Shown one piece after another: positions 2,704 to 62,052 of a stretch of DNA of 64,000 bases. The first letter of the stretch is position 1, and the number at the start of each line of letters is the position of its first letter. The position numbers and the translations under genes are program-made. The notes under the pieces are model-generated. The model saw only the letters and a list, made by a program, of their open reading frames with translations. It did not search any database and was not told the DNA's origin. This DNA is from an uncultured Pseudomonadales bacterium (GTDB taxonomy: Bacteria; Patescibacteriota; Microgenomatia; UBA1400; MFAQ01), in NCBI GenBank assembly GCA_964513845.1, contig CAZENT010000002.1:75916-139915 (forward strand). The letters are read 5' to 3'.

Positions 2704-2766
2704 TTTTAAAATTAACTTTTAACAAAACCTATTATAACAACTCCATAAAATATTATTATCGAGGTT

Positions 2767-2950
2767 AAATATTTCTCTTTCCGTTTGGCAATTTAGTATT
2801 TTTTGACAATGAGTCGCACGTCCGTAATTTTCTTGACGATCAGACTACTGTCTGCGACGCTACGCGATGAGCGGCTAGAGTCAAGAAAATAGGAACCGAC
2901 GGTCACCACAGGTGACGTCAAAAAAACTAAATGACAAAAGAGGAAAGAGT
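2767..2950. ncRNA. Conserved ~185-nt non-coding element, copy 1 of 2; candidate structured sRNA with its own promoter-like TTGACA
   Basis: Near-identical to 40333..40516 (same orientation). Substitutions between copies are compensatory in an 8-bp stem (UUCUUGAC/GUCAAGAA versus UUCUUGAU/AUCAAGAA). Conserved hairpin GACGGUCACC-ACA-GGUGACGUC. ORFs over it (2793..3002 minus) are not conserved in frame between copies. Confidence 0.45.
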
Positions 2951-3050
2951 GTCTAGTTTTTAAAAATGTATAAGGCGACAAGTCTAGTACTGAGGAAAAC
3001 AATAAAGTTTTGACTGTGAAGAAATATGTACGGCAGGAATCAAGAAAATA

Positions 3051-4580
3051 TTACCCCCCGAATATCTTCTCCGCCGCCCCAATAATCCCTTTATCCTCAA
3101 CCCCCTCATTATTAATCGGCTCAACATTCAAGTCTTGTTCCTCCGGCTCAGTTCTCTCCGGACCTTTCTCCCCCAGAACACACTTGAAAGTCATCGGTCC
3201 CCAAATCTTTGTCATCTGTTCTTCAATTACTTTCTTTTTGACATCCCGCTCCAACATATCTTGTTGAAATCTTGAGGTGACGGACAAAGTAAGTGATTTA
3301 CCTTTTACATCTACAGGAGAAACCAGTCTTAGCATTCCGGCGAGAGACCCATTACTGGAAGACATCACATTCAAAAAGTCTGTCCACTCCATTTTTATCT
3401 TATCAATACTCGCCAAAGGCCCGTCATAATTTTGAACAACAACATTACCCTTATCTTCAACTTCTTCCGTTTGGATAGCACTTTCTGTACTTACAGTTTT
3501 TTCAGAAACGCTTTGGGCAGGCGTCTCAACTTTTGGGTGGACTACGCCTCCCCCGCTGTCATCAATTGCTAAAGTTAACAAGGCAATTTCTAAAGGTAAT
3601 AAGGGCAATGGAGATACTTTAATCTTGTCAGTCGCCTCGATCAGCTCATCTATCAATTTCAACTCATCTTTAATACCCACTCCTTTTTCTAAATTTTCCT
3701 CCAACAAAATTTTTACTTCATTCAAAAGAGAGGTTGCCAGTATTTGTGCTTTTATACCCACTTTTTCCATCTCTCCAAATATCTTCACAATTTTTACCGA
3801 CTCCCTATTTTTCGCCGCTTCCAATAATTTCTTTACCGATTGTCGGCCCACAATTCCCAGTACCTGTAAAACCAAAACTGAGTCGATTGTTTTTCCATAT
3901 GCCGCCACTTGTTCCAATAATTTATGTCCTTCACGAAAACTGCCATCAGTTGCATCGGCAATTTCTCTCAAGGCTTCTTCATCAATGTCGATTGCTTCGT
4001 TCTTAACCGCCTTCATCAAAGACTCCACAATTTCTTTGATACTCGCTTTGGTAAAGTTTACTCTGGCACAGCGACTGATAATTGTTTCCGGCACTTTCTG
4101 AGCTTCGGTTGTACAAAGAATAAAGATGGCGTGAGCAGGTGGCTCTTCCAAAGTCTTCAAAAGAGCGTTAAATCCTGCTGTTGACACCATGTGTACCTCA
4201 TCAATGATGTAAACCTTTTTAGGAAGTACTACAGGTGCTAGTCGCACCTTTTCTCGCAAGTCGCGGATATCATCTACCAAACCACTACTGGCAGCGTCTA
4301 TCTCTATAACATCCACACCATTTCCTGAATTAAGGCTGACACAAGCGTCACACTTACCGCAAGGCTCCTCAAGATTATCTTTCTTTCCTTGATTTCTCTC
4401 ACAGTTCACCACTTGTGCCAAAATTCTGGCCGTACTGGTCTTTCCTGATCCTCGAGGACCCACAAAAAGATAGGCATGAGAAATTTTCCCGCTCTTCAGT
4501 GTTGATTCCAAAGAATCTCTCACAGACACAAGGTCAAGCTCGCAAATTTTCTTTGGTCGGTATTTCTGATAAAAACTCAC
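3051..4580 (-). CDS. dnaX: DNA polymerase III subunit gamma/tau
   Basis: AAA+ clamp-loader N-terminus (YRPKKICELDLVSVRDSL..., Walker A GPRGSGKTS, zinc module CGKCDAC, DEVHM box). Confidence 0.93.
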   Translation of the reverse strand: MSFYQKYRPKKICELDLVSVRDSLESTLKSGKISHAYLFVGPRGSGKTSTARILAQVVNCERNQGKKDNLEEPCGKCDACVSLNSGNGVDVIEIDAASSGLVDDIRDLREKVRLAPVVLPKKVYIIDEVHMVSTAGFNALLKTLEEPPAHAIFILCTTEAQKVPETIISRCARVNFTKASIKEIVESLMKAVKNEAIDIDEEALREIADATDGSFREGHKLLEQVAAYGKTIDSVLVLQVLGIVGRQSVKKLLEAAKNRESVKIVKIFGEMEKVGIKAQILATSLLNEVKILLEENLEKGVGIKDELKLIDELIEATDKIKVSPLPLLPLEIALLTLAIDDSGGGVVHPKVETPAQSVSEKTVSTESAIQTEEVEDKGNVVVQNYDGPLASIDKIKMEWTDFLNVMSSSNGSLAGMLRLVSPVDVKGKSLTLSVTSRFQQDMLERDVKKKVIEEQMTKIWGPMTFKCVLGEKGPERTEPEEQDLNVEPINNEGVEDKGIIGAAEKIFGG

Positions 4581-5574: not shown

Positions 5575-5964
5575 CTAATCGTGATGAATACCCAAAAGAT
5601 GCAACAAGCCATGGCAAGCCAAAAACTCGATTTCCTCATCGATAATTCTGTTCCATTGTAGAGCCTGTCTTTTGGCTTGTGGATAACAAATCACAATGTC
5701 TCCCAGATTCAGACCATCAAAGTCACCTGGCATCTCCACTCCTTCCTCCAAAGGAAACGAGAGCACATCTGTGACCTTATCTTCCCCAAAATACTTTTTC
5801 TCCAACTCCTTAATTTTTCTCTCCCCCACCACAGACAAAGAAATCTTAACCACACCACTAATGACTTCTTGTTCCTCAAGAGTTTTAACCAAAGCCTCTT
5901 TTACTCTCTTTCGATCAAAGGGATATCTGCTGTCTGCGGCAATGTCTAGTTCAAGTTTTACCAT
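5575..5964 (-). CDS. ybeY: Endoribonuclease YbeY (rRNA maturation factor)
   Basis: C-terminal HGLLHLLGIHHD zinc-binding motif characteristic of YbeY. 129 aa. Confidence 0.88.
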   Translation of the reverse strand: MVKLELDIAADSRYPFDRKRVKEALVKTLEEQEVISGVVKISLSVVGERKIKELEKKYFGEDKVTDVLSFPLEEGVEMPGDFDGLNLGDIVICYPQAKRQALQWNRIIDEEIEFLACHGLLHLLGIHHD

Positions 5965-5965
5965 A

Positions 5966-6394
5966 TTACTGGTACTTGGCCATCACAATTTTATTAATTA
6001 CAGACCCATCGGCCTTGCCTCGAAGTTTACCCATCACCGCTCCCATCAAGCGTCCGCCCGTAAGCCCGGTTTCAGCGGCAATTTTTGCCACCTCAGCTTC
6101 GACTTCAGACTCCGGCATCAAAGAGGGTAAGTATTTCTCAATCAAAGCCAATTCATATTTTTCCTGATCTGTACGAGCCACATCGCCAGCCTTTTCATAG
6201 ATCTCTATCGCATCACGACGTTTCTTGGCTTCTTTAGTCAGTACACGAATTACTTCTTCATCGGCCGGTTCTCCTTTTCGCAGGTCTATAGCATAGCCCA
6301 TCTCCGAAAGAATAAACTTCAAAGCACCAAGCAAACGAGTATCTCCCGCTTTGAGAGCAGTAACTGATTCTGACTTTATCTGTGAATATAACAT
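5966..6394 (-). CDS. yqeY: GatB/YqeY domain protein
   Basis: 142 aa. Yqey-like helical domain (LKFILSEMGY...KRRDAIEIYEKAGD...GGRLMGAVMGKLRGKADGS). Adjacent to rpsU as in Bacillus rpsU-yqeY. Confidence 0.75.
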   Translation of the reverse strand: MLYSQIKSESVTALKAGDTRLLGALKFILSEMGYAIDLRKGEPADEEVIRVLTKEAKKRRDAIEIYEKAGDVARTDQEKYELALIEKYLPSLMPESEVEAEVAKIAAETGLTGGRLMGAVMGKLRGKADGSVINKIVMAKYQ

Positions 6395-7080: not shown

Positions 7081-7317
7081 ATTAATTCGAAACGCTAAAG
7101 CCCAAAACCTTGCTACTTTTTCTAAAAATATTGAAATAATTTTGTTTCGAAGTGTTTCACCCATTATAAAAATATTGCGCAAAGCCCAAAAGCCAGGTTT
7201 CTTGAGTAGTCTCAAGAATTTTGGGCTGCAAACAAGAACGGATTTGGCGCAGGCCAAATAGCGTTCGGTTTTTAGAATGGGTAAACACGGCAGAAACGCA
7301 AAAATAATTAAATATTT

Positions 7318-8400
7318 TTACTTCACAAACAGCTTAATAACATCTTTCACCGTAATCAAAACCATCAGCCCCAGAAGGAAAATCATTCCTCCGGTATTTA
7401 CATATCCTTCAATTAAATTCTTTCTTCTTTTACCGATGATTTTCTCTATCGCCAAAAACGCAATTCTTCCTCCATCCAAGGCTGGGAAAGGCATCACGTT
7501 CAGTATGGCCAAATTAATTGACAAAATACCCATAAACTGCAATACAGCTACCCAACCGACCTTGTAAACCTCTTTACTTACCTGATAAATTCCCACCGGA
7601 CCGGAAACATCTTTTGGCAACCCTTTTCCTGTTACCAGGTTAGTTACAATCATCCCCAAATTGCTGGCAATCTCTTTTCCCCAGCCCCAAGCTTCTTCCA
7701 GGCCAACCACCATTCCCCTAAAGGGCATTTGCCAAACTGGATACTTCTTCATTTCCATATTCGACAAGGCCACCCCAAGCGCTCCCTGACCTTCAGGTGG
7801 GTTTGCTCGAGGAGTAATCTTCACTGTTTTTTCCATTCCCGCCTTGTCACTTATTACCAGCTCTACCTCACTCCCCTTCAGGGTATCGATTTGTTTCACA
7901 AAACCATCAATCCCGGAAAAAGACACTTCTTTTTTATTGGAATAGATATTTTTAACCACGCTATTCATCTCAATTCCGGCCAGTGCAGCTGGAGAGTTTT
8001 CGGTAACTTCTACGATGATTACTTTGTCTGTTTTTGTTGGAATACCCAAATATGAATACACAATCCCAAAAACAACCACTCCCAGTATAAAGTTCATGAA
8101 TACTCCGGATAGCAGAACAGCCGCTCTTTGCCACATTGGTTTGTTAAAAAATGCCTCCGGCGAAGCCGCCTGCTCAGGGTTCTCCATGTCTTCGCCATAC
8201 AGCTTAACAAAACCACCCAAAGGCAGCCAGTTAAGGCTAAAAAGCGTCCCCCCACGACTAAACAATCGTTTGGCTCTCGGTGGCAAACCAATACCAAACT
8301 CCTCCACTTTCATTTTGAAAAGCCTTGCTGAAAAAAAGTGCCCCAGTTCGTGAATCAGAATTAATACCGAGAGCATGAGAACAAAAACAATTAGTTGCAT
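7318..8400 (-). CDS. rseP: Site-2 protease RseP (M50 zinc metalloprotease with PDZ domain)
   Basis: HELGHF HExxH motif in TM1, central PDZ-like region, and a C-terminal NVMPFPALDGG LDG motif. Confidence 0.9.
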   Translation of the reverse strand: MQLIVFVLMLSVLILIHELGHFFSARLFKMKVEEFGIGLPPRAKRLFSRGGTLFSLNWLPLGGFVKLYGEDMENPEQAASPEAFFNKPMWQRAAVLLSGVFMNFILGVVVFGIVYSYLGIPTKTDKVIIVEVTENSPAALAGIEMNSVVKNIYSNKKEVSFSGIDGFVKQIDTLKGSEVELVISDKAGMEKTVKITPRANPPEGQGALGVALSNMEMKKYPVWQMPFRGMVVGLEEAWGWGKEIASNLGMIVTNLVTGKGLPKDVSGPVGIYQVSKEVYKVGWVAVLQFMGILSINLAILNVMPFPALDGGRIAFLAIEKIIGKRRKNLIEGYVNTGGMIFLLGLMVLITVKDVIKLFVK

Positions 8401-8437
8401 TACTAAATCATACCAATATATTTGCTATCATGAAAAC

Positions 8438-8794
8438 ATGATTACTGATGCAGATGTCAAAAAATTAAAAAGGACCTTTGCCACCAAGGAAGAACTCGAA
8501 AAACTTGATTCCAGAACAGCCGAAGGCTTTCTTAATGTTCAAAATCAATTAAACGAGATTAAAGAAGATATTTCTGGGATGAAAGGTGATATTTCTGGAA
8601 TAAAAGGTGATATTTCCGGAATGAAGGGTGATATTTCTGATCTCAAAAACACCATGCTTACTATCCAAGATAATCTTGTTGGTGAAATCCATAAATTAAA
8701 TATCGAAAACCAAGTCACCGCCACCTATCGCCCTAAAATCGAAAATCACGAACAGCGAATCACCAAAGTCGAAACGGTCGTTTTCGCAAACTAA
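8438..8794 (+). CDS. Small coiled-coil protein with KGDISG(M/I) heptad repeats and conserved C-terminal T-A-T-Y-R-P...HEQRI...E motif; paralog of 29965..30204
   Basis: Starts at MITDADVKKL (the upstream part of the track ORF overlaps the rseP start). The C-terminus ATYRPKIENHEQRITKVE matches ASYRPMLTDHEKRISTLE in the 29965 gene. Confidence 0.55.
   Translation: MITDADVKKLKRTFATKEELEKLDSRTAEGFLNVQNQLNEIKEDISGMKGDISGIKGDISGMKGDISDLKNTMLTIQDNLVGEIHKLNIENQVTATYRPKIENHEQRITKVETVVFAN
8567..8644 (+). repeat. 21-nt in-frame tandem repeat (about 3.7 copies) encoding DISG(M/I)KG heptads
   Basis: gatatttctgggatgaaaggt / gatatttctggaataaaaggt / gatatttccggaatgaagggt / gatatttctgatctc. Confidence 0.9.
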
Positions 8795-9384: not shown

Positions 9385-9678
9385 CTAATTAATTGTATTC
9401 CAATCGATTCTTTTAGTTCCTAATGCATTTTTCTCAGGATCAACAATTACCACACCATCTCTTTCTTCTTCCCTTGCCAACTCTCTTCCTAAAGATCTAT
9501 TATTTACACGGGTTTCCCCAGAATCAGGAACAACACTCGGCATACCCTTTTTTCCAGCACTTCTGTTTTTTGCTTTCTGTTCTGCGATTGATGCCAATCT
9601 TTTCTGTTCCTGTTCTACCACAAAACTCAAAGGATTTTCACCATTTTTTATTATTTCATCATTATTCCCATTTTCCAT
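9385..9678 (-). CDS. Hypothetical protein (97 aa) between tsf and frr, where pyrH is normally found
   Basis: ORF track. No recognisable domain. Confidence 0.4.
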   Translation of the reverse strand: MENGNNDEIIKNGENPLSFVVEQEQKRLASIAEQKAKNRSAGKKGMPSVVPDSGETRVNNRSLGRELAREEERDGVVIVDPEKNALGTKRIDWNTIN

Positions 9679-11277: not shown

Positions 11278-12867
11278 TCACCTTCTAAAAATTCCCTTTA
11301 AGAATCCCCCTCCTTGTGTTTTTTCAGAATTTAAGTCTCTTTGAGGAATCACCTTAACGTTTATCTTAATTTGATAATCTTCCAGAATATCATTAACCAT
11401 TAAAGCTGCAGCATCTAGTTCATTCCCCTCGTCAATAGCCAAAATCCATTCATTGTGATCAAAATAGAATCTTCCCCATGAACACACCTCCAAACTTTCA
11501 ATTGAGAGATCTACACCCGACATCGATTTTCGGATAATAAAAATAGAATTTTCACTTCCAGTAAAGTCTTTAATCTCTTTATCAATTACCTGATCAATTT
11601 CAATATCTTTTCTATTCAAACCACATAACCTAATTTTCTGATCCAACAATGCTTCAATAATTGTTCTACCCTCATATTCAATCAGACCTTCCCCTATTTT
11701 ACCTTCAGACCTTACCAACTTAAGCATTTCAAATGAAGAATTTTTATCAGGTTTTTCTGCCAAAAATTCTGCAATTTTTTCTCCATTCGCAATATCACTC
11801 ACACCTTCGATACCAAAGCCGGGAGCTCTCAACTCATGAGGAAATCGTCTCATCCATATATCCATCATTCTCATCAGTTCAGATAAGTATCTTGTTTGCT
11901 TGGCCATCTCACTGGTAATCATATTTCTTTGGCTATCTCTTTTTTCATCAAAATTTGCAACGTCAATTTCAGTTGCTGTTTGCTCCGCCGGATGTTGATA
12001 CTCAATTGGAACAGACACAATTCTTCTTTTCTTAGCTAACAAATAAGCAATCGGTGCATATGCCGCATCAAAGTACATTTTTGGATTCGTTTTTGTCTCC
12101 CCAGAAACTACGGTGTGCTTCTGATAGAAATCCTCCAAAATTTCCGGATCATTCTTAATAACTCTTGTACCACCAAACAAATCAAGTACTGGATCTTTTG
12201 CATTTTTCAAGTGCGCCGACACCAATAATTTATCCAGTATTTTATTTGCCCACGTCTCAGAATACGCTTGATAAGGAGGATAACCACGAAAGTCCTCTCC
12301 TTCTTCTTTAACGTGAGGATCTTTTTTTGATGTGTTTATTTTAATACCTCGTTCTGGCACAACCATATCGGCCGAACCATCAAGAATTGGCCTAACCAGT
12401 TTTTCGACATTTTCAGTTATCCCCGTCTTTTCTATTTCCATCATTACAATGGCTTTCACGCCTTCTTCACGCAAATTTTCAGCCCTTTTCAGAGCTTGTC
12501 TTCGAGAACCGCTATAACCCCTATCTGTTTCCGGTTCAACTATAAGATCATGGATTTGTATATTTTCATCAACAGCATCGGCTTTAACTTCAGCAGAAAT
12601 TTCTTTCAATCGATTTACAAAATCTTCAGAACTTCCACCATCAACGATAACTACTCTACAGCCTTTTTTTAAAGCCATTTTGATTGACTCTATTGCCAAA
12701 TCTCCCCTCACCTGTTCGGCATTGGTTTTATCTCCACCTTCTCGTTTCCAGGTTTTCATGAAAGTCGTACTCGCCAAACACACACTCTCTGGGTGTTCCA
12801 ATCTCTCACCCACTTCTTTTTTATTATCTAAGTCAAATTCGTTTATTGATTCTGCCATATTACTCAT
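11278..12867 (-). CDS. Hypothetical 529-aa protein; the N-terminal VVIVDGGSSEDF segment is reminiscent of the GT-A glycosyltransferase 'DDGS' motif
   Basis: ORF track. Only weak motif-level resemblance; function unknown. Confidence 0.45.
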   Translation of the reverse strand: MSNMAESINEFDLDNKKEVGERLEHPESVCLASTTFMKTWKREGGDKTNAEQVRGDLAIESIKMALKKGCRVVIVDGGSSEDFVNRLKEISAEVKADAVDENIQIHDLIVEPETDRGYSGSRRQALKRAENLREEGVKAIVMMEIEKTGITENVEKLVRPILDGSADMVVPERGIKINTSKKDPHVKEEGEDFRGYPPYQAYSETWANKILDKLLVSAHLKNAKDPVLDLFGGTRVIKNDPEILEDFYQKHTVVSGETKTNPKMYFDAAYAPIAYLLAKKRRIVSVPIEYQHPAEQTATEIDVANFDEKRDSQRNMITSEMAKQTRYLSELMRMMDIWMRRFPHELRAPGFGIEGVSDIANGEKIAEFLAEKPDKNSSFEMLKLVRSEGKIGEGLIEYEGRTIIEALLDQKIRLCGLNRKDIEIDQVIDKEIKDFTGSENSIFIIRKSMSGVDLSIESLEVCSWGRFYFDHNEWILAIDEGNELDAAALMVNDILEDYQIKINVKVIPQRDLNSEKTQGGGFLKGIFRR

Positions 12868-14435: not shown

Positions 14436-14458
14436 TTGACAATTTACATCCCATAGTC

Positions 14459-14487
14459 TTGACAGTCAATCTATTACATGTTAATAT
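14459..14487 (+). promoter_or_regulatory. Near-consensus sigma70-type promoter for lemA
   Basis: TTGACA (14459-14464), 17-nt spacer, TAATAT (14482-14487). RBS AAAAGGAG sits before ATG 14540. Confidence 0.6.
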
Positions 14488-14539
14488 ACCCAAGTTTAAA
14501 AAACTGAACCTGAAAATTTGATTTAAAAAAGGAGAAAGT

Positions 14540-15241
14540 ATGATCAAAATTTCCCGTGTTTTTTCTTTTGTTCTGGTGATTATCACCCTGGTGATGTCCT
14601 TTACTGGCTGTAGTCCCGTTGTGGACGCCAGCAAAAAACTCATTGCCGAACGCGATCAACTTGTTGCTTTGGCTCAAGGTGTACAGGCATCCGTATCGAA
14701 CTTCAACCTTGTACGAGACACTCAGTACGCAAAAATCACCATGAGCAACACTGTTGCTCAAAATTATTACGAGTCCGTAGCTCAGTCTGGAGAGGTCTGG
14801 ACAGGAAACTTCCGGTCAGAACAGGCAGCTCTCGAGAAAGCAATTGCCAATTCCCAGCAATATGTGGGTGGCGATCCAACAAAACCTGATCTGGCCGCCC
14901 TGGCTGCAAGTGGAGGTTTACCCTCGGACACTGGAGCGGCATTCTCCTTGTTTGTCAACAGCGTAGTTCAGGCACCTCCTCCGGTTCCAGACCCAGCCGT
15001 TACTATGGCAGTCATCGATACCTGTAACGAAGCCATGAACACGCTTCAACTCGCTGGAACGGACAGTAACGACGCAGTACGTGCCTACAACACTCTTCGA
15101 TCCTCGGTCTCCGGCGAAGTTGTCGCCGCGGCATCCGAGATCATCGGTTTCCCCCTGCCAGATAACTTCCCATACTATCAAGGTGCGTCTGTGGGACAGC
15201 CAATCACAGACCCTCTAAAAGTACCATCAACCACACCCTAA
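14540..15241 (+). CDS. lemA: LemA-family lipoprotein/membrane protein
   Basis: N-terminal TM with lipobox-like FTGCS. C-terminal AVRAYNTLRSSVSGEVVAAASEIIGFPLPDNFPYY matches the LemA C-terminal signature (YN..V..FP). Paired with the TPM protein. Confidence 0.7.
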   Translation: MIKISRVFSFVLVIITLVMSFTGCSPVVDASKKLIAERDQLVALAQGVQASVSNFNLVRDTQYAKITMSNTVAQNYYESVAQSGEVWTGNFRSEQAALEKAIANSQQYVGGDPTKPDLAALAASGGLPSDTGAAFSLFVNSVVQAPPPVPDPAVTMAVIDTCNEAMNTLQLAGTDSNDAVRAYNTLRSSVSGEVVAAASEIIGFPLPDNFPYYQGASVGQPITDPLKVPSTTP

Positions 15242-39288: not shown

Positions 39289-39520
39289 CTTGTTCAGCTC
39301 TCTGAGCTTCTCTTAGAGATCTTTTACAGGTGGTGCAAACTTTAATTTTTACTTTTGTTCCTTCAATCACCAAATGATGAACATGAAGATTAGGTTTTCT
39401 GACGTGTTTGATTCTGCGTTTGGAAAAACTAACCAAGTTGACATGTTGTACTCCCTTACCACAAATAGCACATTGAAGCTTTCCTTTTTCAGGCTGTTTT
39501 ATATTTTGTTTCATGGGCAC
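39263..39520 (-). CDS. rpmB: 50S ribosomal protein L28
   Basis: CAICGKG...N.VSFSKRRIKH...PNLH...C..CKRSLRE pattern typical of zinc-ribbon L28. 85 aa. Confidence 0.75.
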   Translation of the reverse strand: MPMKQNIKQPEKGKLQCAICGKGVQHVNLVSFSKRRIKHVRKPNLHVHHLVIEGTKVKIKVCTTCKRSLREAQRAEQVAAAKASV

Positions 39521-39565
39521 AATTTTAACATATTTTTGACCTCAAGGTATACTAGAATAAACAAT

Positions 39566-40192
39566 ATGCTATTTACCTTGCTTGGAATCATTCTTTCGGT
39601 TGTCTATCTCATCCTGGCTGTTGCCATTCACGAGTTCGCCCACGCCTTCGCCGCTGACCGTCTAGGCGACCCCACAGCCAGAGCCGCCGGTAGGCTCACC
39701 CTCAACCCCTTTGCTCATATTGACCCAGTTGGCACTGTTGCCCTTCCTCTTGCCCTAATGCTTTTATCGGGCGGTAGTTTTGCTTTCGGCTGGGGCAAAC
39801 CCACCCCTTTTGACCCTTATAATCTCCAAAAACCCCGTCGCGATGCCGGGATTATCTCCATAGCCGGACCAATTAGCAATCTTCTCTTAGCTTCCATTGT
39901 CGCTCTAGCTATCCACTTTCTTCCCTACACCATCGGCGTCTTTCTGTACTCCTTTGTGGTCACCAATATCGGCTTAGCCATCTTCAATCTTATTCCTGTA
40001 GGGCCTTTAGATGGTCAAAAAATCGTCTTTGCCCTCCTTCCTCGCGACTTAGCCTATGAATATCAGGTAATCATGAATAAATACGGCACCCTCCTTCTTA
40101 TTTTCCTCATCTTCCCTATCTTTGGTAGTTCTCCCGTGATGGCTCTGATGGAGCCGGTAATTCGCTTTCTCATCCACCTCCTCCTGCCATAA
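39566..40192 (+). CDS. M50-family (site-2 protease/SpoIVFB-like) membrane metalloprotease
   Basis: From MLFTLLGII: HEFAHAFAADRLGD HExxH in TM1, downstream PVGPLDGQKIV LDG motif. About 208 aa. Confidence 0.75.
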   Translation: MLFTLLGIILSVVYLILAVAIHEFAHAFAADRLGDPTARAAGRLTLNPFAHIDPVGTVALPLALMLLSGGSFAFGWGKPTPFDPYNLQKPRRDAGIISIAGPISNLLLASIVALAIHFLPYTIGVFLYSFVVTNIGLAIFNLIPVGPLDGQKIVFALLPRDLAYEYQVIMNKYGTLLLIFLIFPIFGSSPVMALMEPVIRFLIHLLLP

Positions 40193-40267: not shown

Positions 40268-40294
40268 TTACCTGCAGGGCCAGGCCCTGCAGGT
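40268..40294. repeat. Perfect 13+1+13 GC-rich palindrome (tacctgcagggcc-a-ggccctgcaggta)
   Basis: Read directly from the sequence. Not followed by a U-tract on either strand. Confidence 0.9.
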
Positions 40295-40332
40295 AATCTC
40301 ACTTCACGAAAGTTCGAATTTCATAACGAAAA

Positions 40333-40516
40333 TAAATATTTCTCTTTCCCTTTGGAAATTTAGTATTTTTTGACAATGAGTCGCACGTCCGTAATTTTCT
40401 TGATTTTCAGACTACTGTCTGCGAGTCTACGCGATGAGCGGACGAGAATCAAGAAAATAGGAACCGACGGTCACCACAGGTGACGTTAAAAAAACTAAGT
40501 GACAAAGAAGGAAAAG
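40333..40516. ncRNA. Conserved ~185-nt non-coding element, copy 2 of 2
   Basis: See 2767..2950. Same orientation, about 90% identity, with compensatory changes in the long stem. Confidence 0.45.
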
Positions 40517-40538
40517 GATGAAATATTCTAGTTGAAGT

Positions 40539-41183
40539 CTACAGTGCTCTCTTCCTCGAAATGAAGCTAAAGACTCCCACCACCAATAACAAAGCTCCAA
40601 AACCAAACAAGGCAATCTTCAAAACAGTAGACAAGGCTCCACCAATTCCCTTACTTGGATTTTCAGCTTCAACGGTAACGTCAACTTTTTCGGTAGTTGT
40701 AGGTGTGACCTTAACCGCCTTACTAGGTGTTGGGGTTGGAGCAACGGTCACATTTACGTCAGGTCGAACTTCTCCGCTTTCGAAATTAATAGTTTGTAAA
40801 ACTCCGGTAAGTAAAACATTTTCCGAAGGCTTACTGCCATAACCATCAGTCTCAGCAGTGATGAACAGATTCGTGAACTTGGTATCGGACGAAGTGGCTA
40901 ACTTTCCGTTAACAATCTCGCCAATTCTCTTCGTTTTTCCCGCTTCAGTTGTCGACCAAACGACATATCGATTTTGCTCAGGTGATAAAGCAATCTTTAG
41001 ATCACGACAAGTAGCCAAAATTCTGTAAGTGCCATCGACAAATACCGAGGTGGCAAAACAAGCTCCTCCGGACCCTGCTCCTCTCAGCAAAACCACTCCC
41101 TCATTGGCCATTACTGGTCGAGCGAGAATTATTCCACCAAGAACGGCAGAAGTAATCAATCCAGAAAAAATCTTCTTATTCAT
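40539..41183 (-). CDS. Secreted protein with signal peptide and C-terminal hydrophobic helix plus basic tail (sorting-signal-like)
   Basis: MNKKIFSGLITSAVLGGIILARPVMA signal peptide, Thr/Pro/Val-rich linker, C-terminal FGFGALLLVVGVFSFISRKRAL. Confidence 0.55.
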   Translation of the reverse strand: MNKKIFSGLITSAVLGGIILARPVMANEGVVLLRGAGSGGACFATSVFVDGTYRILATCRDLKIALSPEQNRYVVWSTTEAGKTKRIGEIVNGKLATSSDTKFTNLFITAETDGYGSKPSENVLLTGVLQTINFESGEVRPDVNVTVAPTPTPSKAVKVTPTTTEKVDVTVEAENPSKGIGGALSTVLKIALFGFGALLLVVGVFSFISRKRAL

Positions 41184-47094: not shown

Positions 47095-47168
47095 GCCGCC
47101 TTAGCTCAGTTGGTTAGAGCACCAATTTTGTAAATTGGGGGTCCTGAGTTCGAATCTCAGAGGCGGCT
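47095..47168 (+). tRNA. tRNA-Thr (UGU)
   Basis: Acceptor GCCGCCU/AGGCGGC, D-arm GCUCAGUUGGUUAGAGC, anticodon stem CCAAU/AUUGG with loop UUUGUAA, T-arm CUGAGUUCGAAUCUCAG. Confidence 0.85.
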
Positions 47169-47200
47169 CTAAATTAATACTCGCCCTTGTGGTGAGTTTT
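47151..47200 (+). repeat. Direct repeat copy 1: tRNA-Thr 3' end (T-loop to acceptor) plus downstream terminator
   Basis: 50 nt identical to 47299..47348. Confidence 0.9.
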
Positions 47201-47298
47201 TATTTTGACAAGAATGATGGGATTCGAATGGCGGAACCAGTTTCGTAACGAACCTGGTGAGCCGGGGTCGATGGGCTTGCGAAGCAAGAACCAGTGAC

Positions 47299-47348
47299 CG
47301 AATCTCAGAGGCGGCTCTAAATTAATACTCGCCCTTGTGGTGAGTTTT
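47299..47348 (+). repeat. Direct repeat copy 2: tRNA 3'-end fragment plus terminator (att-like scar)
   Basis: Perfect 50-nt match to 47151..47200. The upstream 98 nt are unique and do not complete a tRNA. Confidence 0.9.
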
Positions 47349-56458: not shown

Positions 56459-56472
56459 TAAGGTAATTACTT

Positions 56473-56494
56473 CCAGTCCTCGGTACTCACGGGG
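56473..56494 (+). repeat. 22-nt motif CAGTCCTCGGTACTCACGGGGA, copy A, at the 5' end of a ~110-nt hairpin-rich segment ending in a T-run
   Basis: Exact match to 61908..61929. Followed by an 11-bp interrupted stem (GGUACUCACGGG/CCCUGAGUACC), an outer AGUCCU/AGGACU stem, and UUUAUUUUUU. Confidence 0.9.
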
Positions 56495-56819
56495 ACAAAG
56501 AGGTTTCCAAATTGAAATAAACAGTACTTCAACCCTGAGTACCCGGAAGGACTTAGGTGGTATTTATTTTTTATTCCCGAAACAAAAAGATCGTAGCCAT
56601 ATACCTTTTCAAAAATATTACGCACATGCGCGAAAGCACGGCTTTTTTCTTGAAAAGAAAAAATTTCGCGCCTGCAGTACAAAGACGGCTCCAACGCAGG
56701 TGGAGAACGTCTGGTTTTTGCAAAAGGTGTAAGGCGGCAGATCTTGTTGAGGTAGATAACAAATATGCGATGACCAACAAAGAATATTGACGACAAACCG
56801 TATAAAGATAAAACGATTT

Positions 56820-61656: not shown

Positions 61657-61706
61657 CAGGACACGACATATCCTGCTTTCGTATTTGTTGTTCTGAATTT
61701 CTCCCT

Positions 61707-61736
61707 CAAACCCGCCATATATGGCGGGTTTTTTGT
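61707..61736 (+). terminator. Intrinsic terminator
   Basis: aaacccgcc-atatat-ggcgggttt hairpin followed by tttt. Confidence 0.75.
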
Positions 61737-61907
61737 GAAATATAGCCCCAATATTGAAAATTTTCTTTTTCTCACAAACACAAGTCCGTAGTCTATTCCC
61801 TTTTCGGCAGGATTACGCAAAGCGACAATACTCAGACAATGAAAATATATTGTATTCGCAATGCATATCCGATACAAAAAATATCGCGCAAAGCACAAGT
61901 GTACTCA

Positions 61908-61929
61908 CAGTCCTCGGTACTCACGGGGA
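61908..61929 (+). repeat. 22-nt motif CAGTCCTCGGTACTCACGGGGA, copy B, followed ~50 nt later by an intrinsic terminator (ggacggctttc...gaaagagcgtcc + TTTTTT)
   Basis: Exact match to copy A. Preceded by an extra GTACTCAC half-repeat. No plus-strand gene downstream before tsaC on the minus strand. Confidence 0.9.
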
Positions 61930-62052
61930 AAATTGCCTGGATTCTAGGTACTCCTAGAAAATTTTGCTGATAGAAAGGACGGCTTTCACGCAGGCGAAAG
62001 AGCGTCCGGTTTTTTGTATGGATATGCATGAGAGAATATAGGAAAAATATTT

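Follow-up and report, generated by a model that had tools for sequence, protein, structure and literature searches.

A non-coding stretch of about 187 nt occurs twice, in the same orientation, in the 64,000 nt of DNA analysed here (the window), and raises the question of whether it is a small RNA gene or a palindromic repeat that moves. The element, called A below, is real, non-coding, structured and unannotated. Homologues of DnaX and of the M50 protease place the window in a Candidatus Collierbacteria-like lineage of the CPR. Genomes of CPR (Patescibacteria) are streamlined and measure about 1 Mb, and a search of the literature on repeat elements in CPR returned nothing relevant.

Copies of element A and their sites

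The two copies, A1 and A2 (Table 1), are 91% identical in a global alignment. MAFFT and a repeat finder pair 2757-2946 with 40324-40514 in the same orientation, and pieces of A of 21 and 34 nt each occur exactly twice in the window and not once in shuffled sequence. A sequence-only reading of the window had described two same-orientation copies of about 90% identity, one between dnaX and ybaB and the other 3′ of a secreted-protein gene, and both the copies and their placement are confirmed by the alignments and the gene coordinates. A1 lies between the stop codon of dnaX (3051-4580, - strand) and the promoter region of ybaB (2404-2703, - strand) and is antisense to both. A2 has a gene of the site-2 protease (M50) family on one side (39374-40192, + strand) and on the other a convergent gene for a secreted-type protein of 214 aa (40539-41183, - strand). 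A short flank, TCTAGTT, follows the 3′ arm in both copies. Between the M50-family gene and A2 also lies a perfect 14-bp palindrome, TTACCTGCAGGGCC/GGCCCTGCAGGTAA (40268-40296), with no U-run behind it.

A scan of 185,579 species genomes and 241 million metagenome records yielded one real additional copy, at 1456-1643 of metagenome contig L008, which is 87-88% identical to the window copies. Its host is clearly a different organism: its Sua5 is 76% identical to that of the window in protein and 70% in DNA, and another flanking protein only 43%. Because A is conserved at 87-91%, against 70% of nucleotides in Sua5 and 43% in the flanking protein, it is much better conserved than the neighbouring genes, a comparison in which one protein gene (Sua5) was compared in DNA. 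The sole match of the 21-nt hairpin in the genome collection falls inside a coding region of a high-GC Acidimicrobiia genome and is due to chance. Searches of viral contigs, phage records and plasmid records gave no match to A, nor did concatenated six-frame peptides of A against a protein database. In the Logan assemblies, contigs with ybaB or the 214-aa gene break off within A1 and A2, and contigs of the same organism are short and go no further than the repeats.

Both window sites differ in length among relatives. The dnaX-ybaB spacer of the window, at 347 nt, compares with about 35 nt in L007, where the YbaB protein is identical, 44 nt in L013-L018 and 127 nt in L020. In L011 the spacer measures 263 nt and holds a different structured element; in L019 it reaches 654 nt and contains a small reverse-strand gene together with an internally deleted remnant of the second family described below. 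The 35-40 nt that adjoin ybaB line up by eye among the window, L007 and L011, which places the extra DNA between the dnaX stop codon and the ybaB promoter; an extended -10, TGTTATAAT, is found in the ybaB-proximal sequence of the window, L011 and L020. On its dnaX side A1 directly abuts what appears to be the 3′ tail of a second-family repeat, which by eye can be aligned both to window positions 56713-56767 and to the 3′ end of the L011 element that occupies the same spacer intact. Judged by these alignments, A1 adjoins, or has replaced, most of an older element. At copy 2 the window has a spacer of 346 nt, and L021-L023, relatives that share the flanking genes and are 87% identical in protein, have one of 59 nt. 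A is thus absent from the orthologous sites in every relative examined, and the L008 copy occupies the same site, between the same two genes, as element C of the window (synteny by tblastn). Gain and loss of small RNA genes are common between species at about 85% protein identity, so that empty sites alone are no proof of mobility.

A consistent target-site duplication was sought at A1, A2 and the L008 copy, and none was found. AAATATT flanks A2 on both sides (40335-40341 and 40521-40527) and neither A1 nor the L008 copy; AAATATTT is itself palindromic, the flanks are AT-rich, and the empty sites are too diverged to define junctions. The sequence-only reading had expected a mobile element of MITE type to occur in tens of copies with target-site duplications. 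Polymorphic sites speak for such an element, but only two copies plus one are known, and no consistent duplication was found.

Fold, signals and a second structured family

The whole unit of A is an imperfect palindrome in which long arms at the termini enclose an inner stem and a conserved side hairpin, an architecture missed by the sequence-only reading. In A1 the outer arm CTCTTTCC (2775-2782) is paired with GGAAAGAG (2942-2949), and ATTTAGTATTTTTTGAC (2791-2807) with GTCAAAAAAACTAAAT (2917-2932). The terminal arms pair in all three copies, in MFE and consensus folds alike. In the predicted fold they close a three-way junction whose branches are the inner stem and the side hairpin, with internal loops of at most 5 nt. 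The apical domain of A1 contains a further small hairpin, CAGAC-TACT-GTCTG (2841-2854). The inner stem is longer in A2, as had been noted, with 15-nt arms that are 93% complementary. The internal hairpin that had been called conserved, GACGGTCACC-ACA-GGTGACGTC, is indeed intact in both window copies (40466-40487 in A2) and carries an AAA loop in the third.

Table 1. Features of element A and of the second family. Coordinates refer to the window, except where a contig is named.
Feature	Coordinates	Strand	Description
A1	2766..2952	+	model R1 match 212 bits, all 188 positions; RNA fold -63.8 kcal/mol, z -4.7 (vs shuffles)
A2	40333..40520	+	model R1 match 219 bits; RNA fold -65.1 kcal/mol, z -6.9 (vs shuffles)
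5′ terminal arm, A1	2775..2807	+	CTCTTTCC, internal loop, ATTTAGTATTTTTTGAC; pairs with 2917-2949 in MFE and consensus folds
Promoter-like TTGACA-16 nt-TAATTT, A1	2803..2830	+	inside 5′ arm; reads rightwards
Inner stem TTTTCTTGAC/GTCAAGAAAA, A1	2828..2889	+	encloses variable apical domain; site of C-G to U-A swap
Side hairpin GACG(G)TCACC-ACA-GGTGACGTC, A1	2898..2919	+	9 bp, one bulged G; adjoins 3′ arm
3′ terminal arm, A1	2917..2949	+	GTCAAAAAAACTAAAT, internal loop, GGAAAGAG
Putative remnant 3′ tail of B-E family repeat	2953..3010	+	TCTAGTTTTTAAAAATGTATAAGGCGACAAGTCT...GAGGAAAACAATA; directly abuts A1
Element D	7123..7320	+	between HIT and M50 peptidase genes; inverted repeat I1; R2 match 153 bits
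Element B	56588..56745	+	downstream of rpmG; R2 match 143 bits; RNA fold z -7.3
Element C	61853..62039	+	between 215-aa gene and Sua5/TsaC-like gene; R2 match 144 bits
L011 elements	9476-9632 and 5931-6090 (L011)	-	second family
L019 remnant	11908-12057 (L019)	-	second family, internally deleted

The overlapping ORFs of 69 and 62 aa do not keep their frame between copies, and every frame is interrupted in at least one of the three copies; the earlier claim that A is non-coding therefore stands, and A as coding sequence is ruled out. An Rfam scan of the window gave no match to either copy, at the gathering threshold or at E <= 10, and returned only four tRNAs and chance-level matches. The doubt raised earlier about SRP RNA was well placed, as A is not SRP RNA and matches no Rfam family. 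A hammerhead-like core seen in GCGATGAGCGG is likewise ruled out, since it misfits the CUGANGA core and matches no Rfam ribozyme. Two other parts of the window are repetitive. The last 18 nt of a tRNA at 47095-47168 (anticodon UGU by eye), together with a terminator-like hairpin, are repeated exactly 148 nt downstream (47151-47200 equals 47299-47348), and the roughly 100 nt between look partly tRNA-like; the region 47095-47348 could contain another tRNA gene, either unusual or split by an intron, or else a short stretch inserted at the 3′ end of the tRNA. A unit of 21 nt (ATGAAAGGTGATATTTCTGGA-like) recurs in four to five tandem copies at 8537-8639; these overlap a predicted ORF of the + strand (8375-8794), in which they would encode a repeated 7-residue motif.

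The promoter-like 5′ end proposed for A is present in A1 and at 40370-40397 in A2, and TTGACA-16 nt-TAATTT is invariant in the three known copies. As a promoter it is weak: the -10 hexamer TAATTT agrees with the consensus at 3 of 6 positions, and the site falls below the threshold of a consensus scan, which did not report it. Since it lies inside the 5′ arm, a transcript that started there would lose half of the conserved closing stems. No shared promoter was found upstream of the repeat boundary and no terminator behind A, where the side hairpin is followed by an A-run; on the - strand no U-run follows the structure. Elsewhere in the window, at 14436-14484, two TTGACA boxes occur upstream of a gene at 14540, the second followed after 17 nt by TAATAT, a sequence that suggests the use of sigma-70-like promoters by this organism.

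A second family, B-E, is represented in the window by three + strand elements of 155-200 nt (D, B and C) and, with model R2, by two copies in L011 and the remnant in L019. It covaries strongly: both partners have changed in 22 of 33 pairs, a count that none of 500 shuffles reaches and against which slid controls give 1-8, in an alignment that was fitted to the model and so leans towards structure. The loops and junctions carry conserved motifs (CGCGCAAAGC, UAGU/UACU and GCGCAGG), and a hairpin followed by GGTTTTT resembles an intrinsic terminator. No Rfam family matches. Like A, these elements are missing from orthologous sites: the HIT-M50 spacer that holds element D measures 73 nt in L013, and the YqeY-YbeY spacer, filled in L011, does not exist in the window. 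B-E is a stronger candidate than A for a genuinely new structured RNA.

A shares architecture, orientation and sites with B-E. Likenesses seen by eye comprise TTTCTTGA/TCAAGAA, a UACU loop and GACGG…CAGGTG…CGTC, and when the window is scanned with the A model, element D scores highest after A1 and A2 themselves (16 bits, E 0.05). A relationship in sequence is nevertheless not detectable, as model R2 does not match A and local alignments are no better than those of shuffles. A supposed remnant of A at 61657-61860, upstream of element C, is not significant. Just downstream of rpmG, a long hairpin at 56468-56555 (RNA fold z -3.1) has a 31-nt stretch, TACTYMCAGTCCTCGGTACTCACGGGGA, in common with the inside of element C (61902-61932).

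Both families are oriented alike. GC skew on the + strand is strongly negative throughout the window (-0.14 to -0.27) and of the same magnitude in related loci, and the G-rich strand carries about 45 of the 72 long ORFs. Without exception, the nine elements seen (A1, A2, the L008 copy, B, C, D, the two of L011 and the L019 remnant) are on the C-rich strand, a distribution for which a two-sided binomial test gives p of about 0.008 if about eight independent insertions are counted. Part of this bias at co-directional sites may come from selection against terminators within operons.

Readings of element A

On balance, A is probably a non-autonomous, insertion-polymorphic palindromic repeat of MITE/REPIN type in a Collierbacteria-like CPR lineage. 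This reading is favoured by the empty orthologous sites, the decayed repeat that adjoins A1, the assembly breaks and the site shared with element C, and further by the 87-91% conservation, the decay remnant in L019, the uniform orientation and the want of a conserved ORF or Rfam match. One of these points cuts both ways, as the conservation of A between diverged hosts also fits a functional RNA. Taken together, five structured repeats in 64 kb, from two families, in one orientation and missing at orthologous sites, argue for active small mobile DNA or mobile RNA genes.

If A is a mobile repeat, its units would have entered 'safe' intergenic positions immediately beyond gene 3′ ends, or been exchanged among them. 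A trans-acting enzyme would recognise the terminal arms and the conserved side hairpin, which could explain why these are retained, and recognition may take place on single-stranded DNA at the replication fork, as the uniform strand orientation hints. From the internal TTGACA/TAATTT, transcription may proceed rightwards and produce an RNA antisense to the convergent neighbour at its 3′ end; in a transcript of this kind A would form a long hairpin. In the window, comparison of twenty ORFs with Pfam gave housekeeping proteins or unknowns and no mobilising enzyme, and no TnpA-like ORF was found there by tblastn or Pfam. Repeats such as A and B-E break metagenome assemblies of these organisms, can pass for novel RNA genes and mark intergenic hot spots.

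A rather less probable reading makes A a multi-copy + strand small RNA gene that depends on its three-way junction and owes its patchy distribution to turnover or duplication of RNA genes. Its RNA could, for example, bind a protein or act in regulation, or A could encode two paralogues of a 6S-like RNA. Its fold as RNA is strong (Table 1), and in A2 the + strand folds better than the - strand by 15 kcal/mol; as single-stranded DNA the two strands of A2 fold equally well (-29.9 and -28.9 kcal/mol). The conservation of A at 87-91%, against 70% for a neighbouring coding gene, would also suit an RNA gene, as would the position of the copies behind the hairpin of the upstream gene at convergent junctions, where free-standing small RNA genes often lie. 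The co-located B-E family, with its covarying stems, conserved loops, hairpin and U-run terminator on the same strand, points the same way. Against an RNA gene stand the signals: the only promoter-like site would cost it half of its closing stems, no shared upstream promoter or terminator accompanies it, and an A-run follows the side hairpin. It is also disfavoured by the absence of A from the orthologous sites of every relative examined, by the stump of another repeat against which copy 1 abuts, by the failure of 6S and all other Rfam models to match at E <= 10, and by the lack of a large open central bubble.

The base changes within A, on which the sequence-only reading had relied, do not decide between these two readings. 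The C-G to U-A swap that it described is real and sits at the top of the UUCUUGA/UCAAGAA stem (alignment columns 77/121). Its second swap, from G-C to U-A, fails, as copy 1 is unpaired at that place (G.A, A.G, C.U) where copy 2 pairs. In the three copies together, 57 of 67 predicted pairs are invariant. Pairs that change on both sides, which would be compensatory in an RNA, number two against 1.0 expected, a count reached by 102 of 500 shuffles and thus not significant in a test that has low power with three sequences only. The argument from covariation for a structured RNA, and against a selfish repeat, is therefore not supported. Compensatory changes are, moreover, common in mobile REPIN hairpins (PMC3116915), so that covariation is unable to separate an RNA from a mobile repeat. 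One-sided changes in the stems bear on the strand: each of the four leaves a G-U wobble in the + strand where the - strand has A-C, and all are wobble-compatible on the + strand only. With p = 0.06, this pattern, which speaks for the RNA gene, is a hint that A folds as RNA or DNA of the + strand.

It is also possible, if doubtful, that A and B-E together form a hitherto undescribed class of elements, constrained in structure and 150-190 nt long, which in CPR (Collierbacteria) genomes always lie on the C-rich (lagging) strand at gene 3′ ends. Such a class could consist of hairpin elements mobilised via single-stranded DNA of the replication fork, or of a mobile family of regulatory RNAs. A would then be a divergent relative of B-E in which the A-run and the U-run of the closing stem have been swapped.

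An improbable reading takes the reverse complement of A as a cis-acting hairpin, an exapted repeat, that ends or stabilises the upstream mRNA of the G-rich strand within its 3′-UTR. Repeats of REP type (REP, ERIC, BOX) do act as 3′ hairpins that end or stabilise mRNA. In the copies measured, the reverse complement begins within about 100 nt downstream of a stop codon on the G-rich strand: about 100 nt for A1 (dnaX), 21 nt for A2 (214-aa gene) and a few nt for the L008 copy (Sua5). In the second family the distance is about 10-20 nt for C and the L011 element at 5931-6090, and D overlaps the stop codon. Chance would, however, account for part of this proximity to stop codons, since most genes lie on the G-rich strand. 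Folding of the - strand is good too (z -5.4 for A1 and -3.6 for A2), but the fold of A2 is much weaker there and the one-sided changes break - strand pairs. Neither the want of a U-run behind the - strand structure nor the relatives that lack A at the same sites suits such a hairpin.

Very improbably, the two copies arose by plain segmental duplication or gene conversion and are neither functional nor mobile, a reading which the count of only two copies in this genome and their common flank TCTAGTT would allow, but which is contradicted by a third copy in another organism and a third context, by sharp boundaries around a complete palindrome, by conservation of A far above that of the surrounding DNA, and by orientation and site preferences common to A and the second family.

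Likeness to known systems

6S RNA (RF00013) resembles A in its length of about 185 nt, its long closing stem between the 5′ and 3′ ends, its apical stem and the possibility of two paralogues. A differs in that no 6S model matches it (E <= 10), in its three-way junction, which takes the place of a large open central bubble, and in not being conserved at orthologous sites.

Like a MITE, A is short (187 nt, against <500 bp), has no frame open in all its copies and ends in inverted repeats, as the arms at 2775-2807 and 2917-2949 pair in every copy. Presence/absence polymorphism, seen at both window sites, is a further trait that A, with its two known copies plus one, has in common with bacterial MITEs. 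The Correia/NEMIS elements of Neisseria, enterobacterial ERIC/IRU and pneumococcal RUP and BOX are intergenic imperfect palindromes or MITEs. A is like them in being 100-200 nt long, non-coding and intergenic, in folding as a whole into a hairpin and in lying at gene ends; Correia elements also carry an internal promoter-like -35/-10, as A does. A is unlike them in having no sequence similarity to them, only three known copies, no parent insertion sequence with matching ends that could be found, and a CPR host.

IS200/IS605 elements end in two similar hairpins in direct orientation, and the PATEs derived from them depend on ends that are structured instead of identical in sequence, cause no target duplication and are oriented according to the replication strand. 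In contrast, A has terminal inverted arms, and the active strand predicted for IS200/IS605 is the G-rich one, whereas the wobble pattern of A favours the C-rich strand. A related genome, L027, has an IS200-like Y1 transposase gene. The insertion sequence there is compact (14465-15060), with a 138-aa Y1_Tnp gene (HuH motif HIHLL) flanked by two similar hairpins ending in GGGGTTTCCT, and is absent from the corresponding place of the window. A link between it and A is ruled out, as its ends compare with A, B, C and D no better than shuffles do.

REPINs are REP doublets that form hairpins and are mobilised by RAYT Y1 transposases. A is longer (about 185 nt against 70-110 nt) and branched, its copies are far below the hundreds typical of REPINs, and no RAYT gene was found in the window. 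In REPs a guide tetranucleotide, GT[AG]G, sits 5′ of the foot of each hairpin (PMC6006769); GTAG/GTGG is absent from the foot of the arms and of the side hairpin of A, and CTAC occurs only inside the apical domain. A nevertheless resembles REPINs in being a palindrome that would form a long hairpin in single-stranded DNA or mRNA and in its compensatory changes (PMC3116915, PMC6006769). Its setting is similar as well, with several families in one genome and decayed remnants among them, and its strand-oriented behaviour would fit processing of single-stranded DNA, as for REPINs.
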